DNA of 64,000 nucleotides, from assembly GCA_963667725.2 (NCBI GenBank), contig CAXXHO010000003.1, forward strand, positions 992,001 to 1,056,000, given 5' to 3'. The stretch is from Treponemataceae bacterium. GTDB taxonomy: Bacteria; Spirochaetota; Spirochaetia; Treponematales; Rectinemataceae. The position numbers and the translations under genes were made by a program. The notes below the pieces were generated by a model. It saw nothing but the letters and a program-made list of their open reading frames with translations, did not search any database and was not told where the DNA came from. Shown one piece after another: positions 24,525 to 32,830 of the stretch (the stretch's first letter is position 1; each line of letters starts with the position of its first letter).

Positions 24525-27209
24525 TCAAAGATCAGCCACCTCGATGCTCTCGATGAGGTACTGGAACTTTCTGTCGTGTATCGCGAAGGTCAGGCGCTCT
24601 CCCACTTTATGGTTGAAAAGCTTCTTGCCGAGGGGCGAGAGGTAGGAAATGATGTCCTTGGCCGGGTCGGATTCCCAGGGGCCGAGGATCGTATAATATT
24701 CCTTTTCGCCGGTCAGTTCGTTGGTGAGGGTCGCCTTCGTGCCGAAGGATATCTTTGTGGTCGTGATCGTGGATTTGTCGAAGATCTGGGCTTTTTCCAG
24801 CTCATTCTTTAGCTTCCCGACCTTGGCGTTCAGCTCGTCCTGCTTCTCCTTGGAAGCCTTGTATTCGGCGTTCTCCCGCAGATCCCCAAGGGACAGGGCG
24901 AAGGCGATTTCCTTCTGGTTCAGCGGCACGTCCACTTCCATGATCGACTGGAGGAGCTTCTGCTTTTCCGAATATTTTTCCGAGGTGACGATAAGTCCGC
25001 GCGAAACGGTGAGCTTTTCCTCCTCGCCGAAGAAGCGGAGGTTGGGATACTTTTCGGAAATCTTGTGCTTGATGCTCAGCTTGATCGCGGGATCCACTTC
25101 CTTGATGTCCATGAGGAGGGCGTAGACGCGCTCCGTGGTCTCGATGTTGGTCTCGAGGAGGAACTTCTCGAGGACGTTTTCCTTGAAGAGGATGTTCTGG
25201 ACCAGCCTGTTGACCTTGCGGTTTTCGGAGGTGTCCTTGTGGTTGTCGATTTCCTTGAACGTGATGTCGAGAATGTGGAGCAGAGTGAGGAGAATCTTCT
25301 CGTACACGATGCCGAGCTCTGCGAACCAGGGCTCCTCGCGCAGATCCTTGATGAGCCAGATGAAGGCTTCCCGGTAGTCCTTGTAGTTCTCGACGATGTC
25401 CATGCCCATCTTCTTGAGCTTGGCTGAATGTCCCGCTGTCTTGAGCGCGTCGAGCATGCGCATGGAACGGGCATAGGGCAGCAGCTTGATATAGATTTCC
25501 GGCCAGCTGGGGATGAAGTTCTTGATGTGCAGGATATAGGCGTTCCTGAGATCGCTGTCCTTGAGGTTCAGGTATATGGCCAGGGGATTATCTATCTGGG
25601 CGAAAAGATCGGCGAACTTTATCTGGACGCCCTGCTGGAGTCTCGGGTACTTGGTCGCGAGTTCCTTCAGGAGGAGGTAGGAAGCGATGACGTGCTCATC
25701 CACCGACTGGTATGATTTGAGGAAACTCTGGAAATAGGTGAGCATCTCCGAGAAATAATCGGAATCGAAATCGTTGGTCTCGATGTAATCCCTGAAATAC
25801 ACGACGCGGTCGAAATAATTCTTCTCGGCCTTGAACTGGATGTAAACCTTTTCCTCGTAGGAAAGCGGCCTGTCCCTGACGATGAAGGTCGAGATGTCGT
25901 CGGCGGCGTTGCCGAAGGAAGCGTCGGTCTTGAGAATTTCCTTGGCCTTAGCGCTCCAGCTGTTCCATTCGCTGGCGGTGAGGACGGCGGGCACGAGTTC
26001 CGCCTTTACGCGCTTCAGTTCGGCCTTGTTGTCGAAGCTCTTTATGATGTTCTTGAGCGTCCAGACGATGTCGGTCTTGACCTTTTCGCGAAGCTTGTCC
26101 TTGGGCCAGATGGCCTTGAGCACCCAAATATGATCCTTGGAAAGGGGCATGAGGCTGTCGATGGCCATCTTCAGGGACATCTTATGCCCTCTGGACTTCG
26201 CGAAATCGATGGTGACCTCGTCTCCCTTGACCACCGCGATGCGGCCGATGTTCCAGGTCCTGTGGAAGACGAAGTTGCCCACGTCGAAGACGATGTGCTT
26301 TTCGAAATCGTCCATCGCTTCATGCAGGGCGCGGTATGATTGGTTGATATTGGAGAGCTTGAGATAGTCCTGGAGCCTGGAGTGCCCGGCGTACTTGCCC
26401 GAATAGCACTCGATGAGCTCCTTGCGCATGGCGGGATTTTTCTCGTCGTAATCGATGACCAGTTTCAGGATATCGAGGGCAGTGCTCCATTCCTTTTTGG
26501 CCTTGTAGTTCGCGTAGAGATCCATGAGCAGCATGGCGGCCTTGTCCGGGGAGATCACAGAGGCGATTTTTTTCTGGACATGGAAGAAATAATCGATGTC
26601 CTCGGGACAATAATCGACGAGCTTGAGCCATATCTCGCGAACGTTGGTGGGCAGACCCTTGTTGATGTAGCGCAGGAGGGCTTTCTTGTAGAAGTCGATC
26701 GCGTCCTCGCGAAGCCCGAGCTTGTCTTTGCGCTCGGCGATCAACTTGACGATGTCCGCTTCCTCGTAGTCTATCTTGATGAGCCTTTCCCAAGTCGCAT
26801 AACGCTCTTCGATCTTGTCGTCGCTCTCATAGCATTCCGCGAGGCGGGCGAGGGCGATCCTGTTCTCGCCATAGTCGAGAATCCTCAGGCATACGAACTC
26901 GACGATGTTCGTGCGCTTGCCTTCCGCGAAAAGATCCATGAGCTGGGTAAGGTAGGATTCATCGGAAGGCTGCTTTCGCAGGGCGATGATGCCGGCCACA
27001 TAGAGAGCGATGACGCTGCTTTTCGTCTGCGTGAGATGTTCGTCGCAAACCTGGAAAAGTTCATCTACGGCAGAGCTTGCTTCGGCCTCTTCGATAAGTG
27101 CATCCAGCTCTTTCAGGCTGTTGACGGAATAGTTCTGGAGCGTCGATCTCGTCCATTTCTCTTCGTTGAGCATTTCTTGCACTTTGCCAGCAAGCTGGGT
27201 TTCTGCCAT
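24525..27209 (-). CDS. greA: Transcription elongation factor GreA, long form (~895 aa) with large helical N-terminal region
   Basis: C-terminal GDLRENAEY, ISFGT, ILGPWESD, ISYLSPLG. ATG 27209 after AGGAGA. Confidence 0.93.
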   Translation of the reverse strand: MAETQLAGKVQEMLNEEKWTRSTLQNYSVNSLKELDALIEEAEASSAVDELFQVCDEHLTQTKSSVIALYVAGIIALRKQPSDESYLTQLMDLFAEGKRTNIVEFVCLRILDYGENRIALARLAECYESDDKIEERYATWERLIKIDYEEADIVKLIAERKDKLGLREDAIDFYKKALLRYINKGLPTNVREIWLKLVDYCPEDIDYFFHVQKKIASVISPDKAAMLLMDLYANYKAKKEWSTALDILKLVIDYDEKNPAMRKELIECYSGKYAGHSRLQDYLKLSNINQSYRALHEAMDDFEKHIVFDVGNFVFHRTWNIGRIAVVKGDEVTIDFAKSRGHKMSLKMAIDSLMPLSKDHIWVLKAIWPKDKLREKVKTDIVWTLKNIIKSFDNKAELKRVKAELVPAVLTASEWNSWSAKAKEILKTDASFGNAADDISTFIVRDRPLSYEEKVYIQFKAEKNYFDRVVYFRDYIETNDFDSDYFSEMLTYFQSFLKSYQSVDEHVIASYLLLKELATKYPRLQQGVQIKFADLFAQIDNPLAIYLNLKDSDLRNAYILHIKNFIPSWPEIYIKLLPYARSMRMLDALKTAGHSAKLKKMGMDIVENYKDYREAFIWLIKDLREEPWFAELGIVYEKILLTLLHILDITFKEIDNHKDTSENRKVNRLVQNILFKENVLEKFLLETNIETTERVYALLMDIKEVDPAIKLSIKHKISEKYPNLRFFGEEEKLTVSRGLIVTSEKYSEKQKLLQSIMEVDVPLNQKEIAFALSLGDLRENAEYKASKEKQDELNAKVGKLKNELEKAQIFDKSTITTTKISFGTKATLTNELTGEKEYYTILGPWESDPAKDIISYLSPLGKKLFNHKVGERLTFAIHDRKFQYLIESIEVADL

Positions 27210-27222
27210 AGCGTTCTCCTCT

Positions 27223-28167
27223 CTATGATACATACTGCTTGAAGATATCCTCATCGAGCAGCCGGATTTTCAGCAATATTTTTTCGCTCCGCGCCTTTTC
27301 GGCGCCGGACGCCTCGTAATGATCCAGAATCCAGAAATATCGGTTCAGAAGGCGAGGCTTCAGCGTGGCGCTCATCGCGGGATTCTCGCGGAGATCGTTC
27401 TCCAGCTGGAACATGGAAGAATTGAGCCGTGAACTTTCCGAAGGCCCCAGTTCGCGCTTTACCCCGAACAGACCGGTGAGTTCACCGTAGACCGGAATCC
27501 ATTCGGGAACTTCCTTTTCCGGAAATCCCTTTCCCTTCGCTATTTCGACGAGTTTATGGATCGTATCGGATTCCAGCAACTCGAGATCTATCTTGTCGGG
27601 GCCAATAAAAAAGGCCTCCCGGAAAAGAACCTTGGATTGGCGATGCTCTCCCGAAAGGGCATGGCAGTCGGCCAGTTCAGCCAGATAGCGCGCCTCATCC
27701 TTCCTGCACTTCACCGCCCGCTCAAGGTGCTGCTGCGCCGTCTCGTAATCGCCCAGGGCTTTCCGGCATCTTCCCAGGCGGAAATCGAATTCGGAGCCGA
27801 GGGCCGCCTTTTCCTCATCGGGAATGGCCAGGAAAAAATCCAGCGCCACGCTGAAAGCCATACGCCTGAAAGCGTATTTCGCCATCTCGAAATCGCCGGT
27901 GATCCGCGAGAGGAAAGACTGGAAGGTCTTCCACCTCGCCATGATCTGGTCGCCTTTCAGAAGAGGCGTCTCCAGTTGGCCCGCCTCATCGATTCGTTCG
28001 CGCCAGAACTGTGCGCACTTCATGGAAAAAAGGACCTCGCCGTTGTCAAAATCCTCATAAAGCGCTTCGTCGAAAAATCGTGAAGCGTTGCCGAGATCGG
28101 CGTTCTTGAGGCATTCATATCCCAGTGCCAGAAGCGAAGGGACGCGATCTAGGTTTACCATGTACAT
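27223..28167 (-). CDS. Tetratricopeptide-repeat protein
   Basis: LGRCRKALGDYETA and LAELADCHALSG helical repeats. Ends 13 nt upstream of greA. Confidence 0.75.
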   Translation of the reverse strand: MYMVNLDRVPSLLALGYECLKNADLGNASRFFDEALYEDFDNGEVLFSMKCAQFWRERIDEAGQLETPLLKGDQIMARWKTFQSFLSRITGDFEMAKYAFRRMAFSVALDFFLAIPDEEKAALGSEFDFRLGRCRKALGDYETAQQHLERAVKCRKDEARYLAELADCHALSGEHRQSKVLFREAFFIGPDKIDLELLESDTIHKLVEIAKGKGFPEKEVPEWIPVYGELTGLFGVKRELGPSESSRLNSSMFQLENDLRENPAMSATLKPRLLNRYFWILDHYEASGAEKARSEKILLKIRLLDEDIFKQYVS

Positions 28168-29052: not shown

Positions 29053-29514
29053 ATGAGAGCCGTCGTACAGAGAGTATCCTCGGCGAGCGTGACGATAGGA
29101 AAGGCCGATAGCGTCGTTGTAGCCGGAGCCATCGACCAGGGCCTTCTCGTGTATCTCGGCGTGGGCAAGGAAGATTCCGAAAAGGACGCCGAATACCTGG
29201 CGGAAAAGGTCGCCCATCTCCGCATATTCATGGACGATGAGGAAAAAATGAATCTATCCCTCGTCGATCTCGGCTATGGGGTTTTGGCGGTTTCCCAGTT
29301 CACCCTCTATGCGGACGCAAGGAAGGGAAGACGTCCGTCTTACTCGGACGCGGCCGGAAACGATGAGGCTCTCAGGCTTTACGAACATTTCTGCCGATCG
29401 CTCTCGGCCGGGGGAATCCATGTCGAGAAGGGGCGTTTCGGGGAAATCATGCGCGTCGCTTACGTGAACGAGGGTCCCATTACCATTCTCCTCGATTCCA
29501 AAAAACTGTTCTAG
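29053..29514 (+). CDS. dtd: D-aminoacyl-tRNA deacylase
   Basis: MRAVVQRV, SQFTL, KGRRPS, NEGPITI. Confidence 0.96.
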   Translation: MRAVVQRVSSASVTIGKADSVVVAGAIDQGLLVYLGVGKEDSEKDAEYLAEKVAHLRIFMDDEEKMNLSLVDLGYGVLAVSQFTLYADARKGRRPSYSDAAGNDEALRLYEHFCRSLSAGGIHVEKGRFGEIMRVAYVNEGPITILLDSKKLF

Positions 29515-29543
29515 GAAATTACCGAGGCGAGGTCGCCGGAATA

Positions 29544-29579
29544 AAAAAAGGGTTGTCCGTTTCCGGACAACCCTTTTTT
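29544..29579. terminator. Bidirectional intrinsic terminator
   Basis: AAAAAAGGGTTGTCCG-tttc-CGGACAACCCTTTTTT between convergent dtd and ppdK. Confidence 0.9.
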
Positions 29580-29607
29580 ATTTGCTACATGGAGCCATTA
29601 AGTCTCA

Positions 29608-32600
29608 CTATTTCTTGGACGTTCCCTTGGGCCTGCCGACATGGCGTTTCGTGGAAATCGCCGCGGCGGTTTTCTTGGCTTTCACAGCCGCTTTGGCGGG
29701 GGCTTTCGCGGCTGTTTTGGTTGCTGTCTTGACAGCGGCCTTGACAGTCTTCTTGACGGCGGGCGTCTTGGTCGACAGCGCTTTCGCGGCCGCCGGCTTT
29801 CGTCCCCGAGTCGATTTGACTTTCTGAACCGCGCCTTTCTTGGCGGGGGCTTTCGCCGTCGGTTTGGCGCCTGCCTTGGAGGCTTTCGCGGTCTTGAGGG
29901 TTTTCGATGCCTTGGCTAAGGCCATGGCCTTTTCGGCCTTGGCGGCCGGTCTGCCGCGTTTTGCCTTGACGTCGGCCGCTTTCACGGCGACTTTTTTGGC
30001 GGCGGCTACTGCCTTTTTAGCCGGCGCTTTCACCGTCTTGGCGGCCTTGGCCGCGGCTTTTTCCTCGATAACAGCCTGAGCCGCCGCGAGGCGGGCGATG
30101 GGCACGCGGAAAGGCGAGCAGGAAACGTAGTTCATTCCCGCCGCGTGGCAGAATTTGACGGATTTGGCTTCGCCGCCGTGTTCGCCGCAGATGCCTACCT
30201 TGAGATTCTTGCGCGTTGAGCGGCCGCCGGCTATGCCCATTTTCACGAGCTTGCCTACGCCTGCCTGATCGATGCTGACGAAGGGATCGTTCGCGAAGAT
30301 CTCTTTTCCGCCTTCCTTCTCCGCCTTTACGTAGTCGGGGAGGAATCGGCCGGCGTCGTCGCGTGAGAGGCCTAAGGTCATCTGGGTGAGGTCGTTCGTC
30401 CCGAAGGAGAAGAATTCCGCTTCCTCGGCGATCTCGTCGGCGAGGAGGGCGGCGCGGGGAATCTCGATCATCGTGCCGACCATGTAGGTGATCTTGGATT
30501 TTGCCTTGGCGATGATAGGATCGGCCACTCCCCTCGTCTGATCGGCGAGGATCTTGAACTCTTTCCTGTCGATGGTGAGGGGTATCATGATCTCAGGGAG
30601 CACTTTGATGCCCTTCTTCTCCATGTTGACGGCGGCCTGGATGATGGCGGTCACCTGCATGTCGAGAATCTCGGGGTAGGTGATGCAGAGGCGGCAGCCG
30701 CGGTGGCCGAGCATGGGGTTGGATTCGTGGAGCTGGTCGCAGCGCATCTTGATGAATTCGGGGGTCTTGCCGGTGATCTTGGCGAGCTTGTCGACGCCCG
30801 CGTCGTCCTTGGGGGTAAACTCGTGAAGGGGAGGGTCGATGAGGCGGATGGTGACGGGTTTGCCGTTCATGGCCTCGAAGATGCCCTCGAAATCGCCCTG
30901 CTGGAAGGGAAGGAGCTTGGCGAGCGCCTTCTTGCGGGTTTCGACATCGTCGGCGATGATCATTTCCTGGATGGCAAGCTGACGCTTTTCCGAATTGGCC
31001 GGGACTTTGAAATCTTTGAAGAACATGTGTTCGGTACGGCAGAGGCCGATGCCTTCGGCGCCGAGCTCGACAGCCTTCTGAGCGTCGTGGGGAGTGTCGG
31101 CGTTGGTGCGGACCTTGAGGGTGCGGATTTCGTCGCACCAGCCAAGCAGCGTCTTGAATTCCTTGGTCTGTTCGGGCTTTTTCAGGGGGAGAGCGCTGAT
31201 GAATACGTCGCCGGTGGTGCCGTTGATGGTCACTTCATCGCCCTGCTTGAGAATCTTGCCGCCGACTTTTACGGTCTTGGCCTTCTCGTCGATATCGAGG
31301 GCTTCGCAGCCTACGATGCAGCACTTGCCCCATCCGCGGGCCACGACGGCCGCGTGGGAAGTCTTGCCGCCGGTCGCGGTGAGGATTCCCTGGGCGGCGA
31401 ACATGCCGCCGACGTCTTCGGGGCTGGTTTCGCGGCGGATGAGAATGGTCTTCTCGCCGGCCAGAGCCATGGTTTCGGCGTCGGCGGCGTTGAACACGAG
31501 CTTGCCCGCGGCGGCGCCCGGGACGGCGTCGATGCCGGTGGCGAGCTTCAGTTCCTTGAGCTTGGCGGCGCCGGTGGCGGCGACGTCGATGATGGGATAG
31601 AAGACGCCCTCGATCTGCTCGGGTGTTATGCGGGAAATGGCTTCCGCCTTGGTGATGAGTCCTTCGTTGACCATATCCACCGCGATCTTGAAGGCCGCGG
31701 AGGGAAGGCGCTTGCCGGTGCGGCACTGAAGCATGTAGAGCTTCTCGTCTTCAATCGTGAACTCGAGATCCTGCATTTCCTTGAAGTTCTTCTCGAGGGT
31801 CTTGCGGACCTTGAGCAGCTGCTTGTAAGCCTTGGGAAGCTTGGTGCCGAGTTCGGCGAGCTTCATGGGCGTGCGGATTCCGGCGACGACATCTTCGCCC
31901 TGGGCGTTGATGAGGCAGTCGCCGTAGAAGACGTTCTCGCCGGAGTTGGGGTCGCGGGTAAAGCAGACGCCGGTGCCGGAGTTGTCGCCCTTGTTGCCGA
32001 ACACCATCTGCACGACGTTAACGGCGGTGCCCTTGAGGTCGGTGATTTTCTCGACGCGGCGGTAGGTTACGGACTTGTCCGCTTCCCATGAATTGAAGAC
32101 GGCGTCGATGGCGCCCCAGAGCTGTTCCATCGGATCCTGGGGGAAATCATCTTTCTTGTTTTTCTTATAGAATGCCTTGAATTCCTCGCAGAGCTCCTTG
32201 AGGTTGTCGGCGCTGAGTTCGGTGTCGTTCTTGAATCCGAGCTTGCTCTTCATCTCGCTGAGCATTTCTTCCATGGGCTCTTTGGAAAGTCCCATGGCTG
32301 TGGTGGAATACATCTGGATGAAGCGGCGGTAGCTGTCGTAGGCGAAACGGGGATTTTTCGTGACGGCGGCGAGACCCTGGACGGATTCGTCGTTGAGGCC
32401 GAGGTTGAGGATAGTCTCGAGCATGCCGGGCATGGAACGGGCCGCGCCCGAACGGACGGAGACAAGGAGGGGATCCTTGGAATCGCCGAGTTTCTTGCCG
32501 GCCATTTTTTCCAGCTTTATGACGGCGGCTTTCACTTCATCGACGATCGCCTTCGGGAGTTTGCGTCCGGCCTTGAAATATTCCTCACAGGAGGGAATGC

Positions 32601-32745
32601 TGATCGTAAAGCCGGCGGGAACGGGAAGACCGATCTTGGTCATCTCCATGAGTCCGGCGCCTTTGCCGCCGAGAATGTCTTTGCTCATTCCGGCGCCCTC
32701 TGCGATACCGCTTCCAAACGCGTACACGAATTTCTTTTTAGCCAT
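29608..32745 (-). CDS. ppdK: Pyruvate, phosphate dikinase with C-terminal Lys/Ala-rich histone-H1-like tail
   Basis: LGGKG, SVRSGA, GGKTSHAAVVARG (phospho-His), GLCRTEHMF, GICGEHGG. ATG 32745 after GGAGGA. Confidence 0.97.
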   Translation of the reverse strand: MAKKKFVYAFGSGIAEGAGMSKDILGGKGAGLMEMTKIGLPVPAGFTISIPSCEEYFKAGRKLPKAIVDEVKAAVIKLEKMAGKKLGDSKDPLLVSVRSGAARSMPGMLETILNLGLNDESVQGLAAVTKNPRFAYDSYRRFIQMYSTTAMGLSKEPMEEMLSEMKSKLGFKNDTELSADNLKELCEEFKAFYKKNKKDDFPQDPMEQLWGAIDAVFNSWEADKSVTYRRVEKITDLKGTAVNVVQMVFGNKGDNSGTGVCFTRDPNSGENVFYGDCLINAQGEDVVAGIRTPMKLAELGTKLPKAYKQLLKVRKTLEKNFKEMQDLEFTIEDEKLYMLQCRTGKRLPSAAFKIAVDMVNEGLITKAEAISRITPEQIEGVFYPIIDVAATGAAKLKELKLATGIDAVPGAAAGKLVFNAADAETMALAGEKTILIRRETSPEDVGGMFAAQGILTATGGKTSHAAVVARGWGKCCIVGCEALDIDEKAKTVKVGGKILKQGDEVTINGTTGDVFISALPLKKPEQTKEFKTLLGWCDEIRTLKVRTNADTPHDAQKAVELGAEGIGLCRTEHMFFKDFKVPANSEKRQLAIQEMIIADDVETRKKALAKLLPFQQGDFEGIFEAMNGKPVTIRLIDPPLHEFTPKDDAGVDKLAKITGKTPEFIKMRCDQLHESNPMLGHRGCRLCITYPEILDMQVTAIIQAAVNMEKKGIKVLPEIMIPLTIDRKEFKILADQTRGVADPIIAKAKSKITYMVGTMIEIPRAALLADEIAEEAEFFSFGTNDLTQMTLGLSRDDAGRFLPDYVKAEKEGGKEIFANDPFVSIDQAGVGKLVKMGIAGGRSTRKNLKVGICGEHGGEAKSVKFCHAAGMNYVSCSPFRVPIARLAAAQAVIEEKAAAKAAKTVKAPAKKAVAAAKKVAVKAADVKAKRGRPAAKAEKAMALAKASKTLKTAKASKAGAKPTAKAPAKKGAVQKVKSTRGRKPAAAKALSTKTPAVKKTVKAAVKTATKTAAKAPAKAAVKAKKTAAAISTKRHVGRPKGTSKK

Positions 32746-32830
32746 TAGGCATGTCCTCCGAAAGGAAAATGAATCGCGAAGCAATGCTTCGCATGAAAAG
32801 CGATTTGCTTTGTTCAAATCACACTGGAGT

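Follow-up and report, generated by a model that had tools for sequence, protein, structure and literature searches.

The window analysed here is a stretch of 64,000 nucleotides from a Treponemataceae bacterium (Rectinemataceae, Spirochaetota, in the GTDB lineage; assembly GCA_963667725.2, contig CAXXHO010000003.1, positions 992,001 to 1,056,000 of the forward strand), and positions are those of the window unless a contig is named. On its minus strand, at 29608..32745, lies a gene for pyruvate, phosphate dikinase (PPDK) whose enzyme part is followed, in the same frame, by a 152-residue polycationic tail bearing three AT-hook-type motifs, and it is this tail, and what it may bind, that we describe. 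The coding sequence, delimited by the open reading frame (ORF) listing and the TIGR01828 match, comprises 1045 codons plus the TAG stop at 29608-29610. The ORF caller listed the frame as 29608..32817; the start is likely the ATG at 32745 (MAKKKFVY...), which was chosen because close homologues begin MAKKKF(VY), giving a protein of 1045 aa (P0001).

Residues 1-893 (30067..32745, minus strand) form the canonical PPDK part, as delimited by the Pfam domains, the TIGR01828 match and the AlphaFold2 fold, and comprise a nucleotide-binding domain, a phospho-histidine swivel domain and a domain for PEP/pyruvate. TIGR01828, the NCBIfam equivalog for pyruvate, phosphate dikinase (EC 2.7.9.1), scored 1268.6 bits against a cut-off of 843.45, with model positions 1-865 of 865 aligned to residues 4-893, and the three Pfam domains, namely PF01326 (PPDK_N, 7.6e-44), PF00391 (the mobile domain of phosphoenolpyruvate (PEP) utilizers, 1.1e-22) and PF02896 (PEP-utilizers_C, 1e-75), all finish by residue 891. 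The phospho-carrier histidine motif GGxTSHAA is found as GGKTSHAA (GGKTSHAAVVARGWG), its residues T462, S463 and H464 are invariant in an alignment of 32 sequences (A1), and this histidine is the catalytic residue of PPDK. Judged by every family feature tested, the enzyme part is an intact PPDK family member. It shares with the canonical bacterial and plant PPDK (TIGR01828) the same three domains, a full-length equivalog score and GGKTSHAA, but the family model stops at residue 893, whereas 152 further residues lie outside it; to our knowledge, the classical characterised PPDKs are without such tails.

The tail, rich in Lys, Ala, Thr and Pro, spans residues 894-1045 (29611..30066, minus strand) and was delimited by composition, by the predicted local distance difference test (pLDDT) and by the lack of a Pfam match. 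The sequence-only reading of this DNA had noticed the PPDK frame running on into a basic tail of about 150 aa, and this was borne out: the 152 residues are in frame and contain no F, W or Y. Lysine accounts for 41 residues (~26%) and alanine for about 49 (~32%), together with 6 R, 1 D and 3 E, for a net charge of +43, an isoelectric point of 11.7 and a mass of about 15 kDa. The same reading counted only two acidic residues, which is right when counting starts after AVIEEK, but there are four from the end of the PPDK model. In the AlphaFold2 model (from a 32-sequence alignment) the enzyme part is folded and its last helix, 883-905, reaches ~12 residues into the extension, while residues 907-1045 have pLDDT values of 24-31 and neither helix nor strand. 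The tail is thus predicted to be disordered, with high positive charge and low complexity, and would fit the disordered polycationic class, which is a functional class and not one of homology. Pfam searched with the tail alone returned no family at E <= 10; among the relatives, four tails (P0104, P0129, P0130 and P0133) have precomputed matches to PF07382 (HC2). When the tail alone was compared by phmmer with 1.84 billion representatives, nothing matched at E <= 0.001, which is uninformative since the composition filter removes everything. The tail appears to lie outside every homology family and to be of the H1/HMGA type by motif and composition; on these comparisons, its likeness to H1-like and Hc2-type proteins is one of composition, not homology.

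The tail is real, in frame and not an artefact of assembly, a doubt that had been raised when it was first noticed. Indels between orthologous tails (33-189 residues) never break the frame or the stop. The probable source run (X1) matches the tail without a difference, and an independent run on a groundwater metagenome (X5) has contigs that cover the tail with substitutions only, the single 1-nt deletion falling at 29543, within the terminator downstream. In addition, a 3,199-nt contig of X6, a library recorded as metatranscriptomic (that it represents RNA is a guess), matches 29583-30450 with 27 substitutions and 0 gaps; by extrapolation, this contig, if colinear, would span the whole gene and reach to about 36 nt upstream of the ATG. 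Note that X19 and other small-share runs cover the conserved enzyme part alone and are uninformative on the tail. The strong terminator proposed after the stop is likewise present, as a bidirectional intrinsic terminator at 29543..29580, common to PPDK and to a convergent plus-strand gene ending at 29514. In its hairpin, a G+C stem of 10 bp is flanked by an A-run on one side and a T-run on the other, so that the terminator would be usable in both directions; the folding energy is -29.8 kcal/mol (z = -4.8), and 0 of 200 shuffles were as stable. A simple terminator scan did not list the hairpin, probably since the A/T runs lengthen the stem, but folding shows it.

Three AT-hook-type motifs are set into the tail on the minus strand, at exactly the coordinates given for them from the letters alone. 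AT-hook 1 (29947..29961), read on the sequence, is KRGRP with the canonical RGRP core (context VKAKRGRPAAKAEK); AT-hook-like motif 2 (29794..29808) is the non-canonical RGRKP, with Lys between Arg and Pro (context VKSTRGRKPAAAK); and the terminal AT-hook, KRHVGRPKGTSKK (29611..29649), stands immediately before the stop and contains GRPK at 29626-29637. The cores have basic residues on both flanks (AKRGRPAAK, TRGRKPAAAK and, for the last, the terminal hook as a whole), and all 6 arginines of the tail fall inside the three motifs, the other 41 positive charges being lysines. Three GRP/GRKP cores in one tail are not expected from composition: among 100,000 composition-preserving shuffles, 1,474 reached one core and none reached three.

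The same arrangement recurs in 35 distinct hook-bearing tails, obtained by pooling parsed loci with database matches, in which 189 of 231 arginines lie inside the hook windows (796 of 5303 residues). Their terminal motif reads K(35) R(35) [S19/P13/H3] V(34) G(35) R(35) P(35) K(33) G(35) [S27/T8] x K(34) K(34), so that six positions (K-4, R-3, G0, R1, P2 and G4) are invariant in all 35 tails and three more (V-1, K+7 and K+8) are kept in 34. The first hook is found as [RKP]GRP more than 20 residues before the C-terminus in 31 of the 35, as KRGRP or GRGRP in 28 of these, with (A/K/R)KRGRPA or GRGRP as the commonest forms, and the middle motif GRKP occurs 28 times in 23 tails, mostly as (S/A/K)(T/A/K)RGRKPAA. 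When nine tails from the window's subclade were aligned, 16 of 223 columns were invariant, nine of them in the terminal hook and three in the helix end AVIEE. Strong purifying selection acts on the three arginine motifs, most of all on the terminal KRxVGRPKG(S/T)xKK, whereas the remaining tail drifts in sequence and length.

The genome of the window (G000) was searched together with 40 relatives; all 41 gave a PPDK match, and the 30 best loci were parsed. Of these loci, all orthologous and from the window's order, 28 have a tail rich in Lys and Ala and 33-189 residues long (lysine 20-37%, alanine 21-44%, 0-2 aromatics), the other two ending in 8 residues (..NTKK), and names on the close protein-database matches are Rectinemataceae and unclassified spirochaete metagenome-assembled genomes (MAGs). 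Conservation in relatives, on which the sequence-only reading had made its case depend, therefore holds for the tail in 28 of 30 loci and for the terminal motif at its six invariant positions. Hooks are more restricted: of the 22 loci from f1, the family to which the window belongs, 14 end in the motif KR[S/P/H]VGRPKG[S/T]xKK, usually with one to four internal hooks, and hooks occur in none of the 8 loci of the sister families f2, f3, f4 and f6. On the DNA level, a pattern for K-R-x-V-G-R-P-K-G has one match in G000, at 29624-29649, and 0 in 400 other Spirochaetota genomes (6 matches for the reversed control pattern). Within the family it is found in 20 of 69 genomes and 11 of 21 genera, once each (control 0), and in the genomes with known PPDK coordinates 13 of 13 matches lie at the PPDK 3' end. 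The pattern undercounts, missing variants such as KRPRGRPRGSKNK in locus L023. The 20 sites differ in synonymous codons (AAA/AAG, CGC/CGT/AGG/AGA, GTC/GTT/GTG/GTA, GGC/GGA and CCC/CCG/CCT), which shows that selection acts at the peptide level.

A quick maximum-likelihood tree of the enzyme part (29 rows; L030 was omitted, as its C-terminal anchor was not parsed) needs at least 3-4 changes of the hook label. Hooks are found in two deep PPDK clades of f1, and hook-less f3 sequences branch between them. Either the hook would be old and lost several times, or tails would have moved between PPDK genes, and on both readings the family keeps the hook on PPDK. The position of f3 between the two deep f1 clades in itself hints at gene transfer or old paralogy. 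Separately, a second PPDK-like gene with 35-38% identity and no evident long tail is present in most genomes of the order, G000 not being among them.

These distributions bear on one account of the tail, namely that it has no specific ligand and serves as a solubilising or spacing 'entropic bristle', regulates PPDK oligomerisation or activity, or is a tolerated low-complexity expansion. Tail length (33-189) and sequence vary widely, with repeat expansions such as (AKKPV)n, and some family members are without hooks, which speaks for this account. Retention in 28 of 30 loci and an invariant terminal motif on a drifting background argue instead for a selected specific interaction, and neutral expansion would not preserve composition, charge and a 13-residue terminal motif; we regard this account as the least probable of those considered.

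We favour the reading that the tail tethers PPDK to nucleic acid, most probably nucleoid DNA, with a probability only a little above even (about 0.55). Binding of the Lys/Ala/Pro stretches to the phosphate backbone would be independent of sequence, as it is for H1-like tails, and K/A/P tails are described as binding DNA electrostatically (PMC6821194, PMC5714199, PMC3553676). The GRP cores would fit into the minor grooves of AT-rich DNA in the manner of HMGA and CarD: PRGRP hooks are reported to become ordered in such grooves (PMC4482583), and the intrinsically unfolded, RGRP-bearing C-terminal domain of CarD to bind DNA (PMC4374960). The active form of PPDK is a dimer (PMC5556012), which would present two tails and six hooks and could in this way stay attached to DNA or form bridges between DNA segments. 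The gain might be to have an ATP/pyrophosphate (PPi)/PEP-converting enzyme located in the nucleoid; alternatively, PPDK might moonlight as an architectural protein, or the tail might serve to store or regulate it. A bolder version, which we put forward only tentatively and consider clearly less likely than simple tethering, would make PPDK a true nucleoid-associated protein, its dimer sitting on AT-rich DNA through six hooks and two H1-like tails and acting in chromosome architecture or in sensing and setting the local ATP/PPi balance at the sites of DNA and RNA synthesis, with the shorter tails of other phyla as simpler forms.

Such shorter tails are seen when the enzyme part (residues 520-890) is used as query and the best 120 clusters at 90% identity are taken. 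Among these closest 120 clusters, the tail has at least 30 residues in 88, 15-29 in 17 and fewer than 15 in 15, and even short tails end in runs such as AKKKK. Terminal hooks fall off with rank, from 16 in the closest 40 clusters to 2 in the next 40 and 0 in the last 40. Source names of the lysine-rich PPDK ends include MAGs of Planctomycetota, Bacteroidota, Elusimicrobia, Dependentiae and Verrucomicrobia. A basic C-terminus is, by these comparisons of sequence, a trait of the whole PPDK clade, of which the window carries the longest and most elaborate form. The fusion proposed at first is no one-off: it stands at the long end, where AT-hooks occur, of a graded series of lysine-rich C-termini on PPDKs of several phyla. 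Two variants were also noted. The tail of P0070 consists of five tandem AKRGPKPKAAAEKPVA units in which RGPKPK replaces RGRP, a repeat-expanded variant of the hook tail. Three PPDKs of the clade (P0154, P0156 and P0161, one of them named Dependentiae bacterium) have a cysteine cluster with a polybasic tip (..AKCCCGKPSKKGKK, ..SKCCCKGKCK and ..NCNCCCGGNKSKAKKK), and these cysteine-cluster ends are possibly metal-binding or lipid-anchor-like.

The short tips leave room for a general polyanion anchor, in which the tail would hold PPDK on polyphosphate (polyP) granules, or on acidic lipids of the inner membrane next to the H+-pyrophosphatase, the GRP motifs being secondary. Besides the 15 clusters with fewer than 15 residues, exemplified by AKKKK, and the few ends combining CCC with a polybasic stretch, the membrane H+-pyrophosphatase encoded in G000 speaks for it, as does the 22-residue basic tail of Caulobacter Ppk1, which is reported to be required for correct polyP-granule localisation (PMC3806658). 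Such an anchor leaves unexplained both the invariant KRxVGRPKG, which 20 genomes retain despite synonymous codon changes, and the confinement of arginine to the GRP motifs, and K/A/P repeats combined with AT-hooks are, from what is described for CarD and PRGRP hooks, a hallmark of DNA-binding tails (PMC4374960, PMC4482583). That the terminal hook does not vary weighs most strongly here, as it does against a tail with no ligand, and we consider a general polyanion anchor unlikely.

The tethering of PPDK to nucleic acid can also be considered from the other proteins of G000 that use similar sequences. In a six-frame scan of this genome, K/A-rich 40-residue windows occur in 4 ORFs only, with 124 in PPDK, 55 in a small protein, 25 in a topoisomerase-I-like N-terminus and the rest in one doubtful ORF; a lineage-wide habit of basic tails on many proteins was accordingly rejected for G000. 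GRP-type motifs in a lysine-rich context are confined to PPDK and two small ORFs. One of these is the small protein, encoded at 2110937-2111332 of contig C3 (plus strand), in which a ~35-residue N-terminal domain (VDKKALASLKKL..NGHALVEI..KYL.ILDE) is followed by a K/A/P-rich linker of 80-130 residues and a terminal hook, KRGRPAK.KK (loci L032-L038). It has clear matches (E <= 4e-7) in 7 of the 41 genomes, all of which have a hook-bearing PPDK, and two weaker ones (E about 0.004) in G008 and G036, and Pfam gives weak HC2 and AT_hook hints only: the AT_hook model PF02178 has 13 positions, and the terminal hook scores just 8 bits against a cut-off of 17.4. From its layout, we regard it as a candidate H1/HMGA-like nucleoid protein using the same module, which supports a nucleic-acid role of the module in this lineage. 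The other small ORF (94 residues, C3:341453-341734, plus strand, L031), ending in KAKRGRPAKKGI / KPKAKRGRPAKKGI, was found in 0 of the 40 relatives, two same-genus genomes included, and was rejected as a family trait, being strain-specific or no gene. On the plus strand of C3, an ORF of 778 aa starting near 816741 begins with a ~60-residue lysine-rich N-terminal extension (..KKPAPKKTATKKAKPKKSAAAKGTKKAEKGK), after which it presumably continues as the start of topoisomerase I, recognised by eye only.

Should the ligand be RNA or ribosomes and not DNA, PPDK would sit on ribosomal RNA, messenger RNA or RNA-rich condensates, for instance with ATP/PPi turnover coupled to translation or RNA synthesis. 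Hooks of the GRP type that have basic patches at a distance are reported to prefer RNA, and a disordered tail at net +43 would bind any RNA. Moreover, lysine-rich low-complexity regions are described as common in ribosomal proteins and are taken as general nucleic-acid binders (PMC6821194). Hook 1 is, on the other side, a canonical DNA-type KRGRP, and the other bearers of the module in G000 are the topoisomerase-I-like ORF, so named by eye, and the small H1-like protein, with no translation factor or ribosomal protein among them. A target in RNA accordingly seems improbable to us, about as much so as the polyanion anchor.

Several results weigh against tethering to DNA. Only hook 1 of the three has the canonical RGRP, hook 2 being RGRKP and hook 3 VGRP, and neither HC2 (PF07382) nor AT_hook (PF02178) matches the tail even at E <= 10. 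The hooks are dispensable and a generic polycation may be the core function, because loci of f1 and of the sister families without hooks exist while 28 of 30 retain a lysine-rich tail. Tips of the AKKKK type are too short to organise DNA and would fit any polyanion, including membranes and polyphosphate. Finally, G000 has two HU-family genes and a G+C content of 55.7%, and therefore no obvious need for a new nucleoid protein and no abundance of AT tracts.

The metabolic side of the original proposal fared less well. Nothing was found in support of a local recycling of polymerase-derived PPi or of carbon flux coupled to chromosome compaction, and both ideas are speculative. For PPi, G000 also encodes the membrane H+-pyrophosphatase and a family II pyrophosphatase-like gene; for PEP use and DNA packaging, it also encodes pyruvate kinase and two HU proteins. 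The family II pyrophosphatase-like gene, of the CBS type, has strong E-values but scores below the NCBIfam cut-offs, and a family I pyrophosphatase was not found in G000 (a genome 97% complete). With pyruvate kinase, H+-pyrophosphatase and the family II-like gene present, PPDK as the only PPi sink or the only enzyme from PEP to pyruvate was rejected. Elsewhere in the window, at 24525-27254 on the minus strand, a 909-residue ORF has a very long N-terminal extension, and its C-terminal end is presumably that of a GreA/GreB-type transcript cleavage factor, a likeness seen by eye only; a very long N-terminal extension on a GreA/GreB-type factor is typical of spirochaetes.

H1-like or AT-hook tails are known on proteins already working on DNA, and we know of no nucleic-acid substrate of PPDK. 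Low-complexity regions are described as normally scarce in metabolic enzymes (PMC6821194). Myxococcus xanthus CarD offers a close parallel in layout: its N-terminal part is folded, and the basic C-terminal domain that follows, of ~140 residues with repeated RGRP hooks, is intrinsically unfolded (PMC4374960). CarD is a transcription factor that binds RNA polymerase, whereas the protein described here is a glycolytic/gluconeogenic enzyme; CarD also has an acidic segment before its hooks, whereas the PPDK tail has almost no acidic residues and is mostly Lys and Ala, so that the two are alike in motif and composition only and share no sequence homology. A 2009 study by Garcia-Heras et al., cited in PMC4374960, reportedly concerns the functional equivalence of HMGA-like and H1-like domains, and the Anaeromyxobacter orthologue of CarD has an H1-like domain. 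KRxVGRPKGSxKK, and the L023 variant of it, would closely resemble the second HMGA1 hook; a phmmer search of the last 30 tail residues against PDB sequences gave 0 matches at E <= 10. Compared with the PRGRP core of eukaryotic HMGA, only hook 1 has RGRP, hook 3 has Val for the first Arg and hook 2 is RGRKP, PF02178 gives no match, and the motifs are appended to an enzyme. The likeness to HMGA hooks is likely convergence.

Two further bacterial systems can be compared. The lysine-repeat and PAKKA tails of actinobacterial topoisomerase I, Ku and HupB are, like the PPDK tail, low-complexity Lys/Ala/Pro C-terminal tails on a folded protein, and are described as modulating or stabilising DNA binding (PMC5714199, PMC3553676). 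Their host proteins act on DNA already, and no conserved AT-hooks are reported there on the tails. Caulobacter crescentus Ppk1 resembles PPDK in being a phosphotransfer enzyme in energy metabolism and in having a strongly positive tail at its C-terminus, which acts there as a localisation signal, and its authors discuss binding of the tail to polyP or access to the nucleoid region (PMC3806658). The Ppk1 tail is 22 residues long and without AT-hooks, in contrast to 152 residues and three hooks in PPDK, and the families are unrelated. Searches of open-access full texts turned up no account of a PPDK with a lysine-rich or AT-hook tail, and what is new here is that an enzyme of central metabolism bears a polycationic AT-hook tail of the DNA type.

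If tethering is true, this PPDK would offer a clear and testable example of how an enzyme of metabolism is positioned on the chromosome of a bacterium, or on another polyanion, by way of an HMGA-type hook that has stayed unchanged across at least 11 genera. As lysine-rich PPDK ends recur in several phyla, the finding would also bear on a widespread, undescribed feature of PPi-based metabolism in uncultured bacteria.

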